Assembly (NCBI RefSeq): GCF_006345805.1
Contig: NW_021826376.1
Location: 1-13,044 of the forward strand
DNA from: Octopus sinensis
Taxonomy: Eukaryota
Length of the DNA stretch: 13,044 nt
Reading direction: 5' to 3'
Shown here: piece by piece, positions 1 to 13,044 of the stretch
How the letters are laid out: every line of letters begins with the position of its first letter
How positions within the stretch are numbered: the stretch's first letter is position 1
The notes under the pieces: generated by a model
What the model was told of the DNA's origin: nothing
The model's input: only the letters and a program-made list of their open reading frames with translations
Databases searched by the model: none
Translations under genes and position numbers: made by a program

Positions 1-368
1 ACCCGAAACTATAACGCAACTACTGCCAGAAATATCATTATCACCACCACCACTATTACCACCACTACCACCACCACCACTATACCCACCACTATCACTA
101 CCACTACAACCTCTACTATCACAACCACCACTACCACCAACACCACCACTATCACCACCACTACAGCCTCTACTATCACAACCACCACTAACACCACCAC
201 CACCAACACCACCACTATCACCACCACTACAGCCTCCACCATTACAACCGCTACCAACACCACCAACGCCACCACCACTAGTACTACGATTAGCACAAGT
301 ATTACCATAACCACTATCACCGTGACATCCTCCTCCTCCTCCTCATCATCACCACCACCACCACCACC
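1..368. repeat. (ACC/ACT)n low-complexity repeat with a higher-order ~55-65 bp unit; frame +1 is open (Thr-rich) to TAG at 388-390
   Basis: Directly visible trinucleotide repeat. The unit accaccactatcaccaccactacagcctc recurs about 3 times between ~85 and 260. Confidence 0.9.
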
Positions 369-497
369 TTTCACTACCGACAGCAATTAGTGAACCACAG
401 AGCGAGACTTTCATCCACAGCTCCGCAAAACGCGCAAGAATTAAAGAAAAAATAACCATTAAAAAAAAACCATGCCAACCAAAATTAAAACAACAGC

Positions 498-730
498 AAT
501 AATAATAATATAATACTAAATAATAATAATAATATAATAATCTAACAATAATAATAATCATACTAATAATAATAATAATAATAATATAACAATAATAATA
601 ATAACAATAAAATAATAATATATTAATAATAATAATAATAATATATCATAATAATAATCATAATAATAATAATAATAATAATAAATGATAATATAATAAT
701 AAACCATAATAACAATAATAATAATAATAA
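498..730. repeat. (AAT)n microsatellite, degenerate
   Basis: Directly visible. Confidence 0.95.
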
Positions 731-1237
731 GAATTAGTAAATGAAATAATATCACACTGTAGATATCTGTTTTTCTCATCGACATTAAGGTTCTACTCTT
801 GTCAAACCGATCCTGGTCTTCTAAAGAGCGAGACACCCCCCACTCACGATGAGTAAAAAAAAAAGGGGAAAAGAAAAAACAGAAAAAAAAAACGAGGAGA
901 AAAAGACAAATATTAGCTTAACTTTGGTTCCAGGGTACAAATATGGAGACAATATTAAGTGGTCAAGATGTAGGTTGATTATATGTTTTTTAGTAGTGGA
1001 TTATATTTAATAATCTGCCTCCTTCACGATCATCTGTCATATCCCATCACTCGCTAAAGGCAGCTCAAGATACTTCAAATGGATACTTTGTGTGTATTTG
1101 TATGTGTGTGTGTGTGTGTGTATATATAAATGTGCACGCTTCTCTTTACCTTCACCCACCACCATCATCATCATCACCGCATACACCGTTACCACCTCAA
1201 GCGTAACCGTCATCTTCCATATACGTATATTTGAATA

Positions 1238-2712
<1,475 letters not shown>

Positions 2713-2744
2713 ATCTATCTATCTATCTATCTGTCTGTCTGTCT
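2713..2744. repeat. (ATCT)n(GTCT)n microsatellite; right flank of the Tx1 element
   Basis: Directly visible immediately after AATAAAGAAACAT. Confidence 0.95.
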
Positions 2745-2790
2745 ACGAACACGCGCACGTACACACACACATATGTATGGATGTATGTAT

Positions 2791-2991
2791 GTCGGTAATG
2801 TGACCAGCGTGTGTACCGTTGGTGATTTTTTACCTCTGTCTTCCCTTCTCTGGATCTTCCCTTCTCCTATGTTTCCGACGAAGAGCTCCGCTCGAAACGT
2901 TAAACCCTCCTTCTTTCCTGAGCGTCCAATAATACTAATATTTGTTCCACGTACTCGCGCTGTTGTGTTTTTTTCTGCTTACTTGTTTGGT

Positions 2992-2995
<4 letters not shown>
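2791..2995 (+). mobile_element. ~200-bp Penelope-like pLTR/non-autonomous retroelement remnant (family A, copy 1), ending in (TA)n
   Basis: Contains a minimal hammerhead motif. Shares GAAGAGC..GCTCGAAACGT, TTCCTGAGCG and ATTTGTT..GTACTC with 8758-8958. The 5' boundary is approximate. Confidence 0.65.
2871..2905 (+). ncRNA. Minimal type I hammerhead ribozyme-like motif (U4C variant core)
   Basis: GUUU-CCGACGA-A-GAGC(UCC)GCUC-GAAAC-GUU/AAAC. Stem I is GUUU:AAAC, stem II is GAGC:GCUC and stem III is the loopless palindrome ACGU. Predicted cleavage after 2901. Confidence 0.7.
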
Positions 2996-3044
<49 letters not shown>

Positions 3045-3072
3045 ATATATAATATATATATATATATATATA
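2996..3072. repeat. (TA)n microsatellite
   Basis: Directly visible. Confidence 0.97.
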
Positions 3073-3115
3073 CTTCTAAATATCTCAGAGAGATATAAGC
3101 AGTAGTGGTACGATG

Positions 3116-3519
3116 GGATCTTTTCGGTTTGAACGGCAGTTTTTTCTAGCGGTGTCATATGAAATTGTCACCCATAATTATGACCCTAGTATCGATCTAT
3201 TGCAATCTGTTTTAGGGTTAGGGTTAGGGGTGGGGGAAGGGTATCTTTTTTCTTCAGAAATGTAAATAAACCCAATCTGTTTCTTAAACGAGGGACATAT
3301 ACGGCACAGAATGTTTTTTTTTTACCTCAATAGACGTCAGTGATTGGTTGGAATTGCAGAAATTGAAGAAAAAAACAACAACAAATATCTTACAAACTAT
3401 AGAATTTTCTCAATAAAGCCATGAGATGTTTTATAAACACATTCTACCAGTATACGAAGTTTAAAAGTTTTAGTTACCTAGAAATTATGTTAAAAGCTGC
3501 CGTTCAAACCGAAAAGATC
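3116..3519 (+). mobile_element. MITE, GGATC-terminal family, with internal (TTAGGG)3 (copy 1)
   Basis: Perfect 23-bp TIR GATCTTTTCGGTTTGAACGGCAG / CTGCCGTTCAAACCGAAAAGATC. Highly similar along its length to 11105-11517. Confidence 0.92.
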
Positions 3520-3571
3520 ACAAATCTGGTTAAAACAAATCTTGTCAACTGCCTTTGTAATAAAATTTTAA

Positions 3572-3600
3572 AATTGTAAAGAGACTTTATGAACACCCTG
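3572..3600. mobile_element. Solo right terminus of a Tc1/mariner-type element
   Basis: Reverse complement reads TA|CAGGGTGTTCATAAAGTCTC, a typical Tc1/mariner end next to TA. No partner TIR was found. Confidence 0.45.
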
Positions 3601-3904
3601 TATATTTACTTATATGTGTACAGTTCTCCCTACTTATAAGGCATATCGCTACATTGCGTCCCCGCATATAACGCGGGTGGTTTGATGGACTCCCAAATAA
3701 TTTGAAGCAGAATTTCCCTTATTATCGCTCACAACTTGCAAAAACCTTGATTAGAAGCAGAATTTCAACTACGAACCACATGGTTCCGGGTTCATTCCTA
3801 CTGCGTGGCACCTTGGGCAAGTGTCTTCCACTATAGCCTCGGGCCGAAAAAAGCCTTGTGAGTGGATTTGGTAGACGGAAACTGAAAGAAGCCCGTCGTA
3901 TATA

Positions 3905-5205
3905 CGAGGGGCGTTCAATAAGTAATGCCCCTGACGCACTTCCCATAGCAGTAGAGCAACGAAACTTGTTATAACGAAACAGTTATTAGTCTTTTTCTAC
4001 ATAGGAAACAACCAGAGTTACGCATTTCTCCCATCGTTGATGCGGCTCTGAGAGACCGTTTTTGTAGAAGAACCCAGCTTGGTCCTCCAACCTCAACGTG
4101 ACTTCAGAAATCAAGGCTGCATCATCTGGGGGAAACGCTTTCCTTTCAAAAACAACTTTATGATTGGGAAGAGGTGTAAAAATCAGAGGGTGCAAGGTCA
4201 GGAAGTAGTGGGGATGGGGAGGAGTTCATAGCCATACGCCTGTGCTTCTTGATCTGGCGACACGCGAGTTGTGGACCGGAGCGTTGTCCTGCAGGAGGAG
4301 GAAGCCTTTGCTGATCTGCCCCGCCTCTTGATTTTGATAACTTCTCTTAATTTCCTCAAAAGTGAAGCATAATAGGCTCCTGCAATTGTGGTACCCTTTG
4401 CCAGGAAATCTGTCATCACTACTCCGTCCTGTCTGGTCCCAGAAGACTGTGAGCATGACCTTGCCAGCGGAGGGCTGCACCCTGCTTTCTTTGGAGGGGG
4501 TGAGTCACGGTGCTTCCACTGCATTGACTGGGCTCTGGTCTATGGATCATCGTGATGCACCCAGGTTTCATCCTGTGTAATCAGTCTTTTGAAAAATTTT
4601 GACTCATCTTCTTGGCACATCTCCAAATTCACCCTCGAGCACTCGACGCGTTCTTGCTTCTGGAAAGGCGTGAGCAACCTGGGAATCCATCTGGCAGACA
4701 CCTTTTGCATATGCAAATGGTCATGAATGATAGTTTCCACAGACCCGGTACTATCTTGACCTCATGGGCTATTGGCGAATAATTATGCGTCGATCTTCCA
4801 AAATGGCAGCCTCAACTTGACGGACAGATGCCTCATCAATGGCAGAAGGGGGCGACCAGATCTGGGAGCTGTTTCCACAGAGTTCCGACCATGTTTGAAT
4901 TCACGATGCCAGCGTTTTACAAGGTCATATGATGGGGCATCATCACCATAAGTTACTTTCATTTCATCAAAGTCTCCCGTGGGTGCGTCCTTTCAAATAC
5001 AAAAAACCGGATCACTGCTCGACACTCAACAGGCTCCATTTCACACTTGATTCGGTTCAAACACCTGTAAATAAGAAACCACAATTATTCATAGCTGTAA
5101 TTTGCCACTTACTCTATAGAGATATAAATGATTGCACATGCAAAATTTCAGCTAGATCAAACAACTGCAAATGGGTCAGAGGCATTACTTATTGAACGTC
5201 TCTCG
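3905..5205 (-). mobile_element. Full-length (1301 bp) mariner transposon, probably irritans-subfamily-like
   Basis: ~31-bp TIRs CGAGGGGCGTTCAATAAGTAATGCCCCTGAC / GTCAGAGGCATTACTTATTGAACGTCTCTCG, with TA TSDs at 3903-3904 and 5206-5207. The subfamily is inferred only from the CGAGGGG terminus. Confidence 0.97.
3986..5039 (-). pseudogene. Mariner transposase (D,D34D type), disrupted by frameshifts and stops
   Basis: MEPVECRAVIRF start, WIPRLL (WVPHEL motif), ITQDETWVHH, SAGKVMLTVFWD, LLQDNAPVH, PDLAPSDF, and RWEKCV..YVEKD stop. Confidence 0.95.
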
Positions 5206-5793
5206 TATATATTTATATATATATGTGTGTGTGTGCGTGTGTGTGTGTATGTTTCTGTGTCTGTGTTTGCCCTCCCAACATCGCTTGTCAACCGATGTTG
5301 GTATGTTTACGTCCCCGTAACTTAGCGGTTCGGCAAAAGTGACCGATAGAATAATTACTAGGCTTACAAAGAATAAGTCCTGGGGTCGATTCGCTCGAAC
5401 GACTAAAGGCGGTGCTCCAGCATGGCCACAGTCAAATGACTGAAACAAGTAAAAGAGTAAAAGAGCAAGTGCATACCTTAATCAACAGCTTGAAAATAAT
5501 ATTGCAATCGGTTACCAAATAATTGGGTGCTAATTATCTGTTTCTTTGATTTTGCGATGAAATCAACACCTTTTCGACCGGCGAGCGCTCTTTTGACAGT
5601 TCGATTTCCACGATTTGATTGGATTGTTTGAAGAAGATTCCTCCAATCAAAGGGTTCGAATGAGACAAGCAAATTAATATTTTCACACTGGAGGTATGTT
5701 TTATATAAAAGTGACACCATATTCCACATCACTTCATTACAATTTCAAGTTATCTTGCAGATATTTGAAAAAAAAATACAGTATGACTACACA

Positions 5794-6823
5794 ATGCCTA
5801 AGAGACAAGGATCGTTTCACTTTGGCCGACAGATTTTTAAAACAATTTCTTTGTAACTAAACACTTTTAACTGATATGAAATATGTCATAAAGAACAGTG
5901 ACATTTTCACATGACACCGCAAATAATTGTTGTTGACACACTACGGCAGAAATTGAATTCACCTCAATAGATGTCATTGATTTGTTGAAATTGCCGAAAT
6001 GCAGAAATTAAACAACAATAGCTTACAAATACAGAATTCTCAAGAAAGCCAAGAGAAAAAGATGTTTTATAAACACATTCTACCAGTATACGAAGTTTAA
6101 AAGTGTTTAGTTACAAAGAAATTATTTTAAAAATCTGCCGGTCAAAGCGAAAAGATCCAGAGGTAGTCCTATTCTGTAAAGGAAAAGTTAGATCTGGTTG
6201 AATGTATTCGAAATGGCGAAAGCAAAGCCAAACTATCGAGAAAGACTGGTGTTCCGGAGTCCACCCTGTGTGGTTGGGTTAAGGATGAGGCTAACCTCAG
6301 GAGTTATGTAAATACAGTTGTGGACAGTGAGGGCCTAGCTAGGAAGAAGGCCAGGACTGCCAATGACAGTGAACTTCAGAAAGTAGTTTTCACCTGGTTT
6401 GTCCAGGAGCAGAGTGGCAGCACCCCCACTGTCAGGCGCCATTAGCAGAACCCAGGCAGAGAAGTTTTATAGCCAGCTGCATCTAGAGCAACCTGACCAG
6501 ACTGATCAGCAGACCTTTCTAGTCAACAAGGGGTGACTGTACAGGTTCCAGAAGCGCTATTGGTATAGGTTCTGTCAAGATCAGTGGGAATCAGAGATCA
6601 GCAGACAGCCAAGCTGCAGATGACTTCCCAGCTACTCTGAAGCAGCATATGGAAGCAGAATACCTCACCCCAGAACAACTGTGCAATGCAGATGAGTCCG
6701 GCCTCTTCTGGAAGATACTACCAAACAACACTAACAGTAGCAACAGATGTTCATAACACCTTGGACTACAAACAGGCAAAGAACAGACTGTGCCAGAAGA
6801 AGCTGAGAGACTTTTTTATGTGA
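5794..6823 (+). pseudogene. pogo/Tigger (CENP-B/Jerky-like) transposase relic: two HTH domains, start of the DDE domain, then the C-terminus; interrupted by a MITE at 5809-6158
   Basis: MPKRQ [MITE] SYSVKEKLDLVECIRNGESKAKLSRKTGVPESTLCGWVK..RKKARTA..VVFTWF..KG*LYRFQKRY..NADESGLFWKILP..KNRLCQKKLRDFFM*. AATAAA follows at ~6827. Confidence 0.9.
5809..6158. mobile_element. MITE related to the GGATC family, with ~65-bp TIRs and no TTAGGG tract
   Basis: GGATC...GATCC termini. The right ~200 bp is homologous to the right part of 3116-3519. It is inserted after codon 5 of the Tigger ORF. Confidence 0.88.
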
Positions 6824-6925
6824 TTGAATAAAAAACAATTAAATGTGAACCTTCATACAATGTAACTTTATTAATTAAACATACTTTTAAGGGTTTTCAA
6901 ATCATTCACCAGGTGGCATGACACC

Positions 6926-7411
6926 TGTAATGATATGCATAAGATCTGGTATCAAATCTAAGTAGAGATTTCAAACTTAAAATCTTCAAAGCCACAGTCG
7001 AACCATTCTACTATATGGCTCAGAAACCTGGACGTTATCAATCAGAAGCTTGAGAGGCGGTGGATGGAACTTACACTTGCTCCTTATGAGAGCTTAAATC
7101 TCTCGTGAAAGCGTCATCCAACCAAAGTACAAATATATGGGAAGTTACCCCTGTATCATCTCTTGTGAAAGGTAGAAGAGTCCAGTTTGCTGGACATTGT
7201 TGTAGAGCTAAAAAGAGGTAATTTCTACTCTTCTCCTCTGGAAGCCATCTGCTCACGATACCAGAGGGCGCAAACTCTCCTACCCTGATGTAATCTCCAG
7301 GAATACAGGCATCTAGCAACAGGACCTCCGTGATGCTATGATGGACCGTGAAGCCTGATGTAAAATAGTAAATTCCATTGTCTCGACCACGGTCGAACAA
7401 TGATGATGATG
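6926..7411 (+). mobile_element. 5'-truncated RTE-clade LINE (ORF C-terminus plus (TGA)n tail)
   Basis: Degenerate translation CNDMHKIW..KLKIFKATVEP-LLYGSETWTLS..RRVQFAGHC. (TGA)n tail and an 8-bp TSD ATGACACC at 6918-6925 and 7412-7419. Confidence 0.9.
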
Positions 7412-7569
7412 ATGACACCAGATATGCAATGTAAAAGCATTTCGTAAGTATTTATTGAAAATTCTTATTTTAGAGTCAACAAGAACTGCTCACGGAAGTA
7501 AACAATGTAAATATTTTTGAAAAGTTGTTGTAAGTGCTGTAATTAATGATATTTTGTAATTTATTGTTA

Positions 7570-7944
7570 TCTCTCTATATATAAACGGCAGTTTGTCTGT
7601 GCGTGTTTCTGTGTGTCTGTCAGGTTGTACCCTCACCCTGACCACGGCTTTCAACGATCTGATTCTGATGAAACTTGACACACACATAGCCCAATGTCAT
7701 AATTCAAAACTAACGCAGCGAAAATTTTGTAAAGTTCCTCCAGTTCTGAAAAAAATCGATAAAATCGACATGGGTCGAGAATCAGAAACAAACCACAGAC
7801 TGTCTAGGGGACGCAACTCAACCTTTTTTAACTAAAAAAAAAAATTTACCATCATTTTTTTGCTATTTTTTGGCTATAACTCTCTAAAAATGCTTTATAG
7901 TTATTTCCCTTACAAAACTGAGCAACGCCGGGCGATACTGCTAG
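7570..7944 (+). mobile_element. Non-autonomous Helitron
   Basis: A|TCTCTCTATATATAAA 5' end, internal TCTG/TG repeat, subterminal GC hairpin CTGAGCAACGCCGGG (7918-7932), CTAG|T 3' end. Inserted between A and T with no TSD. Confidence 0.88.
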
Positions 7945-8197
7945 TTGTATAATACATGTTAAACTTGATTGAATTATATATATATATTTTCGTTCGTGCA
8001 CTTTACTAATCAAACAAAATATCTCATTTTCTTCTATTATCGCCTGTTCCCTCACTTACCCATGAAACCGCGGCCCGGATGGGACGCGGTTGGTTTTTAG
8101 AGCCCATCACCCGCATTTAGAGAGGGGAGTACTGTATTATATGCGTGTGTCTGTATATATATATATATGCATATACGTGTAATATGGTGTGTGTATG

Positions 8198-8222
8198 TCT
8201 CTCTCTCTCTCTCTCTCTCTGT

Positions 8223-8285
<63 letters not shown>
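8198..8285. repeat. (TC)n and (TA)n microsatellites
   Basis: Directly visible. Confidence 0.95.
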
Positions 8286-8286
<1 letters not shown>

Positions 8287-8700
8287 CCAGAGGTGTGGTG
8301 GTTGTGTAGTAAGAAGCTTGGTTACCAACTACATGGTTCCGGTTTCAGTCCCACTGCGTGGCACTCGGGCAAGTGTCTTCTATAGTTTCGGGCCGACGAA
8401 AGCCTTGTGAGTGGATTTGGTAGACGGAAACTGAAAGAAGCCCGTCGTGTATATATGTATATATTTATGTGTGTGTTTTTATGTCTGTGTTTGTCCGACC
8501 ACCACCACCATCACCATCCCTTGACAGCCGATGTTGGTGTGTTTACGCCCCCGAAACTTATCGGTTCGCCAAAAGAGACGGAAAGAATAAGTACTAGTCT
8601 TATAAAAAATAAGTCCTAGGATTGATTTGCTCGACTAAAGGCGGTGTAACAACATGGCAGCATTCAAATACTGAAACGCGTAAAAGAGGGAAAGAGAGAG
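8286..8700 (+). mobile_element. tRNA-derived SINE, family 1, uninterrupted copy
   Basis: Degenerate A box (~8299) and B box GGTTTCAGTCC (8341-8351), central (TA)/(TG) tract and purine-rich tail. Homologous to 3773-5465 and 11762-12438. Confidence 0.9.
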
Positions 8701-8721
8701 TATGTGTATACACACGTGTGT

Positions 8722-8757
<36 letters not shown>

Positions 8758-8760
<3 letters not shown>

Positions 8761-8958
8761 CGCCATGATAGATCGTTAGCTCCTACACGCATTTTTTTCT
8801 CTCCTTGTTTTTTTTTCTGTGTATCTTTCTGTCGAAGAGCGTAGGCTCGAAACGTAAAAGACTTGTTCTATTTCTATTCCTGAGCGCCATACTTATACAT
8901 TTGTTTGTTTGTACTCCACCTGCCTTCGTCTTTTGTTTATTTTCGTAAACCTTCCCAT
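8758..8958 (+). mobile_element. 201-bp Penelope-like pLTR/non-autonomous retroelement remnant (family A, copy 2) inside (TA)n
   Basis: Flanked by (TA)n at 8724-8757 and 8959-8978. Carries a hammerhead motif and the downstream motifs shared with 2791-2995. Confidence 0.7.
8824..8861 (+). ncRNA. Minimal type I hammerhead ribozyme-like motif (A6U variant core)
   Basis: UCUUU-CUGUCGA-A-GAGC(GUAG)GCUC-GAAAC-GUA/AAAGA. Stem I UCUUU:AAAGA covaries with copy 1. Predicted cleavage after 8856. Confidence 0.7.
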
Positions 8959-8979
8959 TATATATATATATATATATAA

Positions 8980-9537
8980 TGTGACAATTATTCGGTAGCC
9001 ATTATAAAACTCCGAGTTTCGGATGTCGGGGCGGAAACCCACGCCGGCATCTCTTCAGTTGTCAGGCCATCGAAAAAAATGCTATGAAAATGACCGTTAA
9101 AACAAAGGGAAATTATTGTGTGATTGACCGTTATTAAGACAAAAGAGCTATTAGAATGACCGGTAAGTAAGGGAAGGGAGTAAAGGTAAGGGAGTAAAAA
9201 TGCTCATAGTAATCGCGTAACCGCGCATGTGTATGTATGGACATGCGCGCTTACGCGCTTACCTTTCCTTTACTACCCTCCCCTTACTTAGCGGTCATTC
9301 TAATACTTCTTTTGTCTTAATAACGGTCAATCACACAGTAATTTCCCTTTGTTTTAATGGTTGTTTTCGTAGCATTGTTTTCGATGGCCTGACTGTGTTT
9401 CCGCCCGACATCCGAAACTCGGAGTTTTATCATGGCTACCGAATAATTGTCACATATTATATTTACAGATAAATTCCTCTATTTACATAATATCGAGGTC
9501 TCTTTCTTTCTTTTGTTATCTTACCATTACTATCAAT
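8980..9537. mobile_element. Foldback element: 475-bp inverted repeat (8980-9454) plus an ~80-bp unique tail; probably an inverted-pLTR Penelope-like insertion (family B)
   Basis: Arms are complementary from TGTGACAATTATTCGGTAGCC inward to CGCGCATGT/ACATGCGCG around a 10-nt loop (9231-9240). There is a hammerhead motif in the arm, TA-repeat flanks and no clear TSD. Confidence 0.7.
9002..9064 (-). ncRNA. Type I hammerhead ribozyme motif with an intact core and long stem II
   Basis: Minus strand reads UGACAA-CUGAAGA-GAUGCCGGCGUGG(GUUU)CCGCCCCGACAUC-C-GAAACUCGGAGUU/UUAUAA. Stem II has 11 of 13 pairs, stem III is near-palindromic ACUC-G-GAGU and stem I is imperfect. Confidence 0.72.
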
Positions 9538-9549
9538 ATATATATTACA

Positions 9550-9758
9550 CCACACATACATACATACATCATACACACATACATGCTTGCATACATACAA
9601 CATACATTACATCATACATACATACAATACATCATACATACAACACACACATACATGCATACATACATACATACATACATACATACATGCATACATACAT
9701 GCATACACACATACATACATACATACATACATACATACATACATACATACATACACAC
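9550..9758. repeat. (ATAC)n microsatellite
   Basis: Directly visible. Confidence 0.95.
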
Positions 9759-10149
9759 ATCTATTTTTACTTATGCGTGCGCACTTTCGCATTTGAACGG
9801 TCGTGTGCCTGCGTAATGTGTGTTTGTGTGTGTATGTGTGCGCGAGCGTGAGTGTAGTGTGTGTATATTTGTGCGTACACATACATGTATGTTTCAGTAG
9901 CTGTTATTTTGGTAGCGATGTGTCCCTTGTACACTACAGACGACTCCACAATGTTGATACTGTCATCGTTGTAATAGGTTTTACATATTAGAAAACAGAG
10001 AGAAAGAAGAAAAGAAAGAAGGAAGGAAGGAAGGAAATACTAAATGCGGAAACAAAATAAATTATGAAATAAAAAATACAAAAACAAAAACTGGCATTCG
10101 GCGTACGAACGAGAGTAAATATTGACCGTCATCATCTATATTCACAAAA

Positions 10150-10368
10150 ACATACATAGTTATATGCACACATAGACACACGTGCACACACAGACACATA
10201 CACACACATACAATTAGATGCGCGTGTATATATGAAGATACAAATACGCACACACACACACACACGAAGGATACATCATATATATATTATATATATATAT
10301 GCATATATACATACACACACACATATATATATATATATGTTATATATATATATATGTATATCTATATG

Positions 10369-10421
<53 letters not shown>

Positions 10422-10657
10422 TGTACGTGTATATATGTATAAATAAAATATGTATGTGTTATGTATATATATATATGTGTGTGTGTGTACATATATATGT
10501 ATATACACACACACTTATGTGTATGTGTAGTGTATATATATGTATAATATATATATATATGTGTGTGTGTGTATATATATATATATGTATGTATTATATA
10601 TGTATGTAGTATGTATGTATGTATGTATGTATGTATGTATGTATTGTATGTATATAT
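10150..10657. repeat. Compound (CA)n/(TA)n/(TG)n/(TATG)n microsatellite field
   Basis: Directly visible. Confidence 0.95.
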
Positions 10658-10789
10658 ACCCTGTGAGAGTATCTAGGTGTGTTATTTATTAAGTTATATT
10701 ACATTACGATTTCTTCCGAGAAAGAAAATATAACGGAAGTCGTAATTACACATTACGGAAAAACTACTGCTACACAAAACGTATATATC

Positions 10790-10818
<29 letters not shown>
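10790..10818. repeat. (CA)n microsatellite
   Basis: Directly visible. Confidence 0.95.
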
Positions 10819-10820
<2 letters not shown>

Positions 10821-10975
10821 GGTAGTGTCCAGCAAGGCAACATTCTAATAACTGAAACGTGTGTTTGTGTGTGCGTATGGGCGGCGCGCGTGTGTGTTGG
10901 GTGTATGTGTGTGTCTGCATGGCTGTGTGCGTGTAATGTTAGAAACTAACTCTCGATGAACTTTTTCTATTTTAG

Positions 10976-11065
10976 CAAGCAACGAAAAACTAAACAGTGA
11001 AAATACTCCGGTTCAGAACAACAATCTGGGAATAATCTGCCATCAAGTACGGATCATACTCCCAG
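10976..11065 (+). CDS. Candidate 90-bp internal exon of an unidentified host gene (phase 1-1)
   Basis: Branch-point-like ACTAAC (~10945-10950), pyrimidine tract CTTTTTCTATTTTAG, donor CAG|GTATGT. Only one frame is open: SNEKLNSENTPVQNNNLGIICHQVRIILP. No homology recognised. Confidence 0.4.
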
Positions 11066-11104
11066 GTATGTTAGGACACGAGGGTGGATGTCGTAAAACA
11101 GACG

Positions 11105-11517
11105 GGAACTTTTCGGTTTGAACGGCAGTTTTTTCTAGCGGTGTCATATGAAAATGTCACCCATAATATAACCCTAGGATCGATCTATGCATTCAATCGT
11201 TTTTAGGGTTAGGGTTAGGGGTGGGGGGAAGGGTTATCTTTTTGTCTTCAGAAATGTAAATACACCCAATCTGTTTCTTAAACGAGGGACATATTCATAC
11301 GGCACAGAATGTTTTCACCTCAATAGACGTCAGTGATTGGTTGAAATTGCCGAAATTGAAGACAAAAAACAATAAATATCTTACAAACTAGAATTTTCTC
11401 AATAAAGCCAAGAGAAAAAGATGTTTTATAAACGCATTCTACCAGTATATGAAGTTTAAAAGTGTTTAGTTATGTAGAAATTATTTAAAAAAACTGCCGT
11501 TCAAACCTAAAAGATCC
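11105..11517 (+). mobile_element. MITE, GGATC-terminal family, with internal (TTAGGG)3 (copy 2)
   Basis: TIRs GGAACTTTTCGGTTTGAACGGCAG / CTGCCGTTCAAACCTAAAAGATCC. Colinear with 3116-3519. Confidence 0.92.
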
Positions 11518-11585
11518 CAGAACCACAATCCGGGAATAATCAGTCATCAAGTACGGATCATACACCCAAAGTATATTAGGACCAC

Positions 11586-11615
11586 AATAGCCCCTTGTGG
11601 GCAAAAAAAGAAATA
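11586..11615 (+). mobile_element. 30-bp extreme 3' end of an L1/Tx1-type LINE with a 14-bp TSD
   Basis: TATATTAGGACCAC is duplicated at 11572-11585 and 11616-11629. The insert GCCCCTTGTGGGCAAAAAAAGAAA resembles the Tx1 3' end GCCCTGTGTGGCTAATAAAGAAA at 2687-2709. Confidence 0.7.
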
Positions 11616-11761
11616 TATATTAGGACCACGATGGTGGATGCCGTAAGACAGGCGGGTGCGTTTAGAAGGAGATGCTAAAAGTGAACGTCGCTTCAAGATT
11701 CATGCATCAAAGCAAATCTGTTTGCGAATTGTAATTACAGCCAAGGAAAAAATATATCTAA

Positions 11762-11989
11762 CTTTTACTTGTTTCAGTCATTTGACTGAGGCCATGCTGG
11801 AGCACCGCCTTTAGTTGAGTAAATTGATCCCAGAACTTATTGTTTGGAAGCCTAGTGCTTATTCTAACGGTCTCTGTTGCGGAACAGCTAAGTTACGGGG
11901 ACGTAAACACTCCACCATTGGTTGTCAAGCGATGTTGGGGGGACAAACACAGACACACAAAGATATACACACGCATATATATATATATA

Positions 11990-12038
<49 letters not shown>

Positions 12039-12438
12039 AGGCGTAATGGCCCAGTGGTTAGGGCAGCGGATTCGCGGTCGTAGGATCGCGGTTTCGATTC
12101 CCGACCCACCGGGCGTTGTGAGTGTTTATGAGCGAAAACACCTAAAGTTCTCCACGAGGCTCCTGCAGGGGGTGGTGGCGAACCCTGCTGTACTCTTTCA
12201 CTACAACTTTCTCTCACTTTTTCTTCTGTTGGGACTGCTCTCTTAGCCAGCGGGGTGGCGTCATTTGAAGGCTAAAACAATGCGAAGCGCATTGTGACCA
12301 GCGATGTGTAGCAACATCTGAGAGCCTGGTCGGTCACGGTGATCACGGTGTTATATATATACGACGGGCGTCTTTCAGTTTCCGTCTACCAAATCCGCTC
12401 TCAAGGCTTTGGTTGGCCCGAGGCTATAGTAGAAGACA
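11762..12438 (-). mobile_element. tRNA-derived SINE, family 1, reverse copy; split by a family 2 SINE and cut at 12440 by a GGATC element
   Basis: 11762-~11965 and 12351-12438 are reverse complements of the SINE halves at 5255-5460 and 3823-3902. Confidence 0.9.
12037..12350 (+). mobile_element. tRNA-derived SINE, family 2
   Basis: A box TGGCCCAGTGG (12047-12057), B box GGTTTCGATTCC (12090-12101), unrelated body and a 3' tandem (TCACGGTGA)-type repeat. Confidence 0.88.
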
Positions 12439-12439
12439 T

Positions 12440-12570
12440 GGATCTTTTCCCTTTGAACGGCAGATCGAAAAATTAATTTTTTGTAATTAATCGAAACCAT
12501 GAAATTGCAATCATGAGTTTAACATCCTAACCATTAAGTCACACACACACACCCCCACACACACACACGT
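12440..12570 (+). mobile_element. Left end of a further GGATC-terminal element; right end not found
   Basis: GGATCTTTTCCCTTTGAACGGCAG matches the family TIR and truncates the SINE. The end coordinate is arbitrary. Confidence 0.65.
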
Positions 12571-13044
12571 ATTAATAATGAAAGGGTAAATTTTTATTAA
12601 TTAAATTAATTAATTAATTAAGTAATTAAAATTAGGGTTCAGCTAACTGCTTCACCACATACCCAATTTAGAAATAGGAGTTAAAAAAATTCCTTTTCTA
12701 CTACTATAAGAATCTCCATGACGGTAAACTTACTTTTTTTCGAAGGCGAAGAGAAAAATAATGAATCAATAATCCTGGTCGTGTTGATTCATCGATTTTC
12801 TCTGCCTTTGTAAAAAAGTATGTGTTAACAACAAACAAGATGAGGACAAATATCCGTCAAATGTAAATAAAGTAAATAATGGTTTAGGTCAAACAACTGA
12901 CAAGAAGAATATTTGCTGTAGCCCATCTTTTATACCAAGACAAAACAATGTGCATGATAACACTTCCAATCAGTACTGCATCAGGCTGCGTACTGTGGTC
13001 GGTCTAATCAACTGGCTCCTTCCCCCAAATTCCGGGCCTTGTGC

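Follow-up and report, generated by a model that had tools for sequence, protein, structure and literature searches.

EN+ (endonuclease-positive) Penelope-like elements (PLEs) are defined by a reverse transcriptase (RT) resembling that of telomerase, with a C-terminal GIY-YIG nuclease. Metazoan non-long-terminal-repeat retrozymes, associated with Cervera and de la Pena (2020), are said to be noncoding, hammerhead-bearing sequences related to PLE termini and are thought to be mobilized by PLE enzymes. Here, we examined a 13,044-nucleotide (nt) stretch of the Octopus sinensis genome (contig NW_021826376.1, positions 1 to 13,044; referred to as the window), in which an initial annotation had described a palindrome resembling a miniature inverted-repeat transposable element (MITE). 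That annotation took it to be, probably, an inverted insertion of a Penelope pseudo-long terminal repeat (pLTR) with a hammerhead ribozyme of intact core. We hold with high confidence that positions 8980-9545 consist of head-to-head, 5′-truncated copies of the 3′ end of a Hydra-clade PLE within (TA)n, likely placed there in one insertion event, and that the hammerhead they carry is a relic.

According to Craig et al. (2021; PMC8557442), Hydra-clade elements are shorter than 3 kb, insert into (TA)n, and carry readily detected hammerheads. Their proteins are described there as marked by the motif RWK, by DKT in place of DKG, by a linker of the form CxCX5C, and by CxxC and CxH motifs around a conserved E and N that replace the CCHH motif. 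The same text states that PLE tails are often found at one end only, gives Hydra hammerheads in a table laid out as stem I, ctgaNga[g/t], stem II, [c/t]gaa, acNN, loop 1-3, NNgt, H, and stem I, and lists in its supplement Hydra-1_Obim, an element of 2507 bp in (TA)n. The minimal type I hammerheads of PLEs, as presented by Cervera and de la Pena (2014; PMC4209133), are built around the core CUGANGA...GAAA...UH. In these hammerheads, helix II is long, helix I is short, and helix III, which is very short, has a near-palindromic loop that lends itself to dimers; they are located in PLE terminal repeats, with many solitary or opposed copies derived from truncated elements. For the Poseidon element PAc, Frangieh et al. 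(2024; PMC11167929) report that AT-rich sites are cut by the protein, which extends the two DNA strands there, that reverse transcription begins at two internal sites, and that the genomic tail is the interval between them. In the same study, the hammerhead was dispensable for insertion in vitro and no transcriptome sequencing (RNA-seq) reads ended at its cut site.

Sequence inspection and an inverted-repeat search of the window delimited a long imperfect palindrome at 8960-9474. The arms pair over 118 nt (9061-9178 with 9276-9393; complementarity, 92%) and over 71 nt at the outside (8960-9030 with 9404-9474; complementarity, 90%), and a GC-rich 22-nt hairpin (9209-9230 with 9241-9262) occupies the center. 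When the left and right arms were aligned with each other, 197 of 224 columns were identical (87.9%), with 37 gap columns. The locus was divided into the following features:

8959 to 8979, no strand: (TA)n target microsatellite of the left flank, into which the outer end of the left arm fades
8980 to 9235, minus strand: left arm, very probably a 5′-truncated, antisense-oriented copy of the PLE 3′ untranslated region (UTR) that ends at the internal (no-tail) 3′ terminus
8997 to 9069, minus strand: likely hammerhead relic, from sequence and a match to covariance model R1
9209 to 9262, no strand: palindrome center, formed by a 22-nt inverted repeat that belongs to the element itself and whose loop (9231-9240) is sense oriented
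9236 to 9470, plus strand: right arm, very probably a 5′-truncated, sense-oriented copy of the same 3′ UTR, with deletions of 17 nt and 19 nt
9471 to 9540, plus strand: 70-nt tail, which separates the internal 3′ terminus from the distal one and is carried by a single arm
9536 to 9545, no strand: (TA)n remnant of the right flank, followed by an (ACAT)n-type microsatellite

The junction between the arms falls inside the element's own hairpin, which is also found in solo copies, and the arms overlap there by 28 nt. In the right arm, a deletion of 19 nt (AACUGAAGAGAUGCCGGCG) at 9393/9394 takes out CUGAAGAG and half of stem II of the hammerhead; the loss of CUGAAGA near 9393, claimed in the initial annotation, was thus borne out. 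This arm has also lost a single C from stem II and a 17-nt piece near 9262. The extension of the right arm beyond the shared no-tail end up to TA repeats was likewise found as described, at 70 nt rather than the approximately 80 bp first estimated. Both flanks are (TA)n microsatellite, which masks any target site duplication. Private substitutions are common to the two window arms, including the variant GGCCTGAC, indicating that both arms derive from one template. Beyond the right flank, a long (ACAT)n/(AC)n compound microsatellite at 9546-9760 is the source of spurious microRNA (miRNA)-family matches in a permissive Rfam search.

The window sequence belongs to a large repeat family. We searched the 2.72-Gb genome with positions 8980-9460 and scored the best 40 of 3154 first-look candidates; at least 92 matches were among those listed for these 40, and the repeat unit is present in thousands of copies. 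Among the matches listed, most loci contain a single unit, and about eight match the whole palindrome on both strands, as the window does. Solo copies match the left arm at 88 to 92% identity and, on the opposite strand, the right arm plus tail at 76 to 82%; because they carry the tail, the tail is part of the element. Copies of the 70-nt tail elsewhere are 94 to 97% identical. The unit consists of the final 330 nt or so of the element, and the window arms extend to about 370 nt from its 3′ end. The left arm is 89% identical to positions 1102-1389 of a reference copy (L024:400-1875).

Homology among solo copies continues for at least 800 nt upstream of the unit, through a GIY-YIG-like frame (...IIYEA...KKYVGLTEGNFKARFNNH...CGLCDMERW) and an RT-like frame (IYKDDALAL, NFLDVSLDL, and YRKPN...SCHP). 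The window arms match the 3′ UTR of L024-type copies, which is contiguous upstream with both frames. This part of the initial proposal therefore stands as to inverted PLE copies, but the arms are copies of a 3′ UTR and not of a whole pLTR. A genome search with the upstream open reading frame (ORF) fragment listed at least 150 matches from 12,830 first-look candidates, and open frames of up to 717 amino acids (aa) occurred at three places among the matches listed. One of these copies, L050, has a 717-aa stop-to-stop frame (523..2676) followed approximately 190 nt downstream by the hammerhead region, in which its own version of the core reads CCGAAGAG, then by the tail and (TA)n. At about 2.5 kb in length, the element ends in (TA)n. 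The predicted attachment of some copies to RT/GIY-YIG ORFs was thus found in L050 and in L024-type copies. Just upstream of the open-frame copy, L050:255-470 contains an unrelated, near-perfect palindrome of approximately 200 nt (GTTAATTCCATTGTC... and its complement) with a (CT)n/(TA)n center.

Because sequence libraries did not name the encoded protein, the ORF was folded instead, using the related open-frame copy L050 and not the window. The AlphaFold model of the whole 717-aa ORF (27-sequence alignment) had a predicted local distance difference test score (pLDDT) of 86.1 and a predicted template modeling score (pTM) of 0.80. Residues 8-490 gave telomerase TERT as the best fold match (9swo_A; Z = 16.9, root mean square deviation [rmsd] = 3.7, 328 residues aligned) and again as the second (6zdp_A; Z = 16.9), followed by RTs of the DGR, DRT2, R2, and LINE-1 types. 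When the C-terminal 148 aa were folded alone (18-sequence alignment; pLDDT = 76.6), the top four fold matches were all GIY-YIG nucleases, with moderate Z values: I-TevI (1ln0_A; Z = 7.8, rmsd = 2.5, 91/92 residues), T4 EndoII (Z = 6.7), UvrC (Z = 5.2), and PD-T4-3 (Z = 4.9), the following match reaching 3.8. In this alignment of 18 relatives (34 to 46% identical), Y18, Y36, G38, R47, H51, E106, and N122 are invariant, as are C100, C103, C131, and H133. As modeled, the ORF encodes a TERT-like RT fused to a C-terminal GIY-YIG nuclease. A protein homology search returned 825 relatives, all annotated no further than "hypothetical protein," and the ESM Atlas contained a cluster in which 11% of the members carry GIY-YIG, which we treat as a lead only.

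The L050 ORF contains RMRWK, SDKTKN, CSCRNKELC (CxCX5C), CGLC, and CPH, the last two flanking the invariant E and N, and by these motifs the element belongs to the Hydra clade of EN+ PLEs. Further likenesses to the clade are a single ORF with RT followed by GIY-YIG, a length below 3 kb, insertion into (TA)n, a sense-strand hammerhead about 100 to 170 nt from the 3′ end, inverted 5′-truncated partners, and the restriction of the tail to one end. Here the tail measures 70 nt, compared to the 30 to 40 bp given in PMC8557442. Since the hammerhead stems differ (stem II atgtcta/tagatat and stem III acca-a-tggt in Hydra-1_Obim), the family is not Hydra-1_Obim, whose proteins have motifs in common with the L050 ORF, as compared by eye only. 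The proposed PLE origin of the MITE-like palindrome is therefore supported by ORF continuity and protein folds, together with the variable junctions described below.

The family has two alternative 3′ termini that lie 70 nt apart, a sharp distal one (...CTATCAATATA, followed by (TA)n or unique DNA) and an internal one (...TTTACAGAT), which adjoins (TA)n in six copies examined. No-tail ends that adjoin (CA)n instead (L023:1430-1530, L029:1430-1530, and L082:1760-1845) stop three letters earlier, at ...TTTACA, indicating that the internal terminus is a fixed site and not just TA microhomology. Searching with a tail-less query gave 21 distinct loci, comprising 13 two-armed copies, 7 solo copies (4 tailed and 3 not), and L020, which was unclear and left out; all 13 two-armed loci had exactly one tailed arm (the minus-arm end of L024 was read from the frame listing, and the tail of L011 is partial). 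Selection for a tailed arm gave 29 loci; of these, 15 had an inverted partner, 14 of the partners being close by (gap of ≤24 nt) and one 640 nt away, and none of the 15 partners extended into the tail. Combined, one tailed and one no-tail end were present in 28/28 two-armed copies examined.

Junctions vary by locus over reference positions 963-1349, so that the variable inversion points predicted from a PLE origin were found, and arm lengths range from about 50 to at least about 400 nt. The gap between arms was −28 to +24 nt in 22/25 pairs. In the unbiased set of loci (set B), the inner ends of the two arms were modestly coupled (mean difference, 20.3 versus 33.5 nt; 273/20000 permutations as low). 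A pooled permutation test of inner ends (1/10000) was rejected because it was confounded by the selection of set A. L067 and L084, apparent solo copies, have only a 15-nt or 26-nt fold-back at the 5′ end. Head-to-head pairs that still include parts of the ORF occur at L049 and L054/L055, and L048 has a direct repeat of the unit on both sides of the ORF, in the manner of a pLTR.

These observations, namely, one arm per start site in 28/28 copies, abutting arms, coupled inner ends, and fold-backs of 15 to 26 nt, are the reasons for reading the two arms as halves of a single integration event begun at two different RT start sites, which we regard as a real possibility if not quite a probable one. 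By analogy with the in vitro behavior of another PLE (PMC11167929), the microsatellite would be nicked by the protein of the element, which would then prime cDNA at two start sites within the 3′ region of the element's RNA. That event would also yield the second arm, with synthesis primed from the other DNA strand or, alternatively, with the enzyme turning back on its own cDNA (copy-back). PAc resembles the present family in its two internal RT start sites spaced by the tail and in its AT-rich target. It differs in belonging to another clade and in having its start sites at the start of the ORF, compared to the 3′ UTR here; moreover, the PAc study reports no start-site difference between strands, whereas here each site has one arm in 28/28 copies.

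As an independent test of the hammerhead, 79 loci encoding relatives (38 to 51% identity) were taken from metagenome contigs and scanned with a strict hammerhead descriptor. Of 39 matches, 37 were on the sense strand and 2 were antisense. Nineteen sense-strand matches lay downstream of the ORF end at a distance of no more than 600 nt (30.9 kb scanned), compared to 20 matches in the remaining 474 kb, namely, the 2 antisense matches and 18 further sense-strand matches located mostly just upstream of the ORF, i.e., in the pLTR position. This bias in strand and position is independent support for the hammerhead. Among the relatives, stem sequences vary and the core is constant. We then scored the octopus family with R1, a covariance model built from 29 of the metagenome-contig relatives and containing no sequence from the O. 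sinensis genome: nine family copies scored 23.6 to 26.5 bits (E = 2e-5 to 1.5e-4), and the open-frame type scored 18.5 bits. Across 63 distinct family copies, CUGANGAG is kept in 49 and C[C/U]GAAAC in 46, and 26 pass the whole descriptor. On sequence grounds, the motif is very probably the clade's conserved 3′-UTR/pLTR hammerhead and real at the level of the family.

The family hammerhead shares the traits listed above for the minimal type I hammerheads of PMC4209133, and its stem III is the same as in two entries of the Hydra table in PMC8557442 ("actc g gagt"). In contrast to the stem II listed for Hydra-1_Obim, that of this family spans 13 positions and includes two fixed mismatches as well as a bulged C. 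The unpaired nucleotide adjoins G12 on the 3′ side of helix II, compared to the 5′ side in the hammerheads described in PMC4209133, and, also unlike those, the family hammerhead, whose cleavage is predicted, is reported by no Rfam hammerhead model. Separately, L057 carries head-to-head hammerheads of a different family (2835-2876, minus strand, and 2884-2924, plus strand; 27 and 22 bits with R1) with a short stem II, about 1.2 kb from a copy of the Hydra-clade family.

In the window, the left arm reads on the minus strand, 5′ to 3′, GGCCUGACAA, CUGAAGAG, helix II closed by GUUU, C, GAAA, ACUC-G-GAGU, U, and UUAUAAUGGCU. The core CUGAAGAG is at 9058-9051, extended stem I pairs 9069-9059 with 9007-8997, stem II and its loop occupy 9051-9021, GAAA is at 9020-9017, stem III is at 9017-9009, and H17 is at 9008. 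The GUU places the predicted cut between 9008 and 9007, the position on the minus strand given in the initial annotation. The same annotation described a 13-bp stem II and an intact core. Stem II does have 13 positions, of which only 11 are paired and two are fixed mismatches, with an unpaired C before GAAA. The core letters CUGAAGA, GAAA, and GUU are all present in the left arm, and the 5′ half of the core is deleted in the right arm; however, stem I of the left arm has only 2 contiguous pairs (3/5), compared to the 3 to 4 at least that are expected of helix I beside the cut and to 5/5 in typical family copies. With stems I, II, and III scoring 2/4/4, the copy is rejected by the descriptor at stem I.

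Applied to the 13-kb window, R1 found the left-arm motif as its only significant match (9002-9064, minus strand; 18.0 bits, E = 0.0019) and marked two pairs of stem I in it as nonstandard; the right arm gave only a partial match (9414-9425; 9.6 bits, E = 0.59). The left arm scores approximately 8 bits below typical family copies because stem I is damaged. One stem I change, GAUAA to GACAA, is common to both arms and is therefore older than the insertion, and another, UUAUC to UUAUA, is private to the left arm. Folding of three whole hammerhead regions gave z values of −1.5, −2.5, and 0.1; the right-arm remnant, with its deletion, gave −1.4. The left-arm hammerhead is likely a weakened relic, with neither arm predicted to cleave. 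Raw reads from three RNA runs, mapped at ≥88% identity so that coverage is at the family level, cover both strands of the locus at depths of approximately 30 to 60 on the left arm and 100 to 120 over 9414-9515. An index of sequencing runs listed no RNA holder for the stretch.

Several results weigh against the interpretation given above. First, no ORF remnant is present within the window itself, so that the PLE assignment depends on other copies. Second, profile methods fail to recognize the protein: a Pfam search matched 0 families on the 717-aa ORF, GIY-YIG reached only E = 8e-4 on six ORF fragments (below the cutoff, with no other family) and was found in 2/18 aligned members with a best E of 0.0034 (also below the cutoff), and profile searches of Protein Data Bank (PDB) sequences gave nothing relevant. 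Pfam likewise found nothing relevant on four homologues and on 27 members, and the precomputed labels PF26215/PF28514 on database relatives (P0001-P0120) were not reproduced by a Pfam search of four relatives and the query. Third, Rfam returned 0 matches for the whole window at the gathering threshold, 44 matches but no hammerhead for 8600-9700 at E ≤ 10 (low-complexity miRNA-like or similar), and no hammerhead for a typical copy (L025:1400-1620). Monomer folding gave no three-way hammerhead junction. Fourth, covariation among the relatives is strong (118 double-change cells versus 36.7; 0/500 shuffles as high) but partly circular, the rows having been chosen by a descriptor that demands helices, and covariation within the family is absent (85.2% paired cells versus 85.6% in shuffles), as expected of neutrally decaying copies. 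Fifth, no pile-up of read ends occurred anywhere in 8700-9700, including the predicted cut, in the three RNA runs. Finally, support for the single-event model is indirect, the coupling of inner ends being modest.

Alternative explanations fare differently against these data. The RNA template may have been a short noncoding derivative, retrozyme- or short interspersed nuclear element (SINE)-like and composed of 3′ UTR, hammerhead, and tail, that was mobilized in trans by the PLE protein. The 5′ ends of short young copies (L059-L085, e.g., L079:1457, L083:1445, L067:1682, and L084:1675) cluster 10 to 25 nt upstream of the CUGA box, at reference positions 1250-1296, giving units of approximately 190 to 200 nt; this cluster could mark a point at which the enzyme prefers to stop or turn back, or else it could reflect a nonautonomous master of short length. 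Such a template would also suit the RNA reads, at approximately 20 to 120× over the tail region compared to 0 to 4× over the ORF of the open-frame copy, and the view, argued in a preprint by Li et al. (2026; 10.64898/2026.07.22.740005), that animal retrozymes are nonautonomous PLE sequences. However, the window arms extend about 370 nt from the 3′ end, into UTR contiguous with ORF remnants in L024-type copies, and 5′ truncation of a long template fits the short copies equally well, no discrete short master having been identified. In contrast to metazoan retrozymes, there is neither a tandem array nor a sign of circular RNA here, and the unit is simply the 3′ UTR of an autonomous element. We consider a short template possible but doubtful.

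That the left-arm hammerhead remains active and cuts minus-strand transcripts between 9008 and 9007 is improbable. Its core letters, stem II, and stem III are intact, it matches R1 as given above, and RNAcofold predicts a dimer in which the stem III region takes part in an intermolecular helix and which exceeds two monomers in stability by 13.9 kcal/mol, a result that is ambiguous. Against activity stand the 2 contiguous stem I pairs, compared to 5 in typical copies, and the lack of any read-end excess at 9007/9008 at a depth of approximately 30 to 40 per strand class in the three RNA runs. In addition, a transcript of the palindrome would pair arm to arm, and, according to PMC4209133 and PMC11167929, cleavage by published PLE hammerheads is poor when neither a partner nor protein is present.

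We find it very unlikely that two PLE copies inserted independently, in opposite orientations and at different times, into the same (TA)n tract. The family does target (TA)n, an unrelated 199-bp repeat (family A, below) has entered the same tract, and the arms are merely 88% alike. However, independent insertions would be expected to yield tail/tail and no-tail/no-tail pairs, of which 0/28 were seen; the arms abut without microsatellite between them, with the narrow gaps reported above and the 28-nt overlap in the window; and both arms carry the private GGCCTGAC variant. Scarcely credible is a true MITE or foldback DNA transposon, with arms serving as transposase-recognized terminal inverted repeats and hammerhead letters that are incidental: a noncoding palindromic repeat of approximately 480 nt to 0.5 kb flanked by TA, also the target of Tc1/mariner elements, and the roughly eight listed loci matching it on both strands do resemble one, but most copies are single-armed, arm lengths and inversion points vary, arm sequence runs upstream into the RT/GIY-YIG ORF of a retrotransposon, and instead of the fixed symmetric TGT...ACA termini by which the initial annotation would have recognized a MITE, the outer ends are asymmetric by 70 nt in 28/28 two-armed copies.

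Family A (8758-8958) lies in the same (TA)n tract. The initial annotation held it to be distinct from the palindrome, and it is indeed a separate young repeat; among the best 40 of 424 candidates scored, copies were 93 to 99% identical and nearly all full length. Its 3′ end, which precedes (TA)n, reads ...CCTTCCC[G/A]TT, and four units are arrayed in tandem at locus L171. The further claim that family A also bears a ribozyme was not supported by R1 (8.0 bits, E = 1.7), and its hammerhead-like block reads CUGUCGA instead of CUGANGA. RNA reads reach approximately 200 to 350× per strand class on a 60-nt block of this repeat (8802-8869), with loose ends on either side (8810, 8825, 8864, and 8868); this pile-up suggests that the block is a conserved core common to many more diverged, transcribed repeats.

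Taken together, these results indicate that the palindrome in the window is a decaying locus (arms 88% alike) without predicted function and, as such, ordinary repeat DNA. For annotation, they mean that (i) a MITE-like palindrome of this kind in O. sinensis is the footprint of a retrotransposon and not of a DNA transposon, and its ribozyme motif is a relic; (ii) the source family is a very abundant, well-preserved PLE of the Hydra clade, which had been described from few copies, and is distinct from the published Hydra-1_Obim, although this kind of element was already known; and (iii) the family hammerhead goes unreported by Rfam models but is detected once relatives supply the model. The asymmetry of the ends is the sole part of wider interest, and it bears on PLE integration: the rule of one tail per insertion supplies many natural data points on how PLE enzymes finish integration, a step reported to have been studied in vitro once, in another clade (PMC11167929). 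If the two arms are indeed halves of a single event, the pattern would be one that was not seen in that sole study, and the thousands of copies in this genome would constitute a natural record of the second half of PLE integration, documenting either start sites chosen according to strand or copy-back synthesis that ends before the tail is reached.

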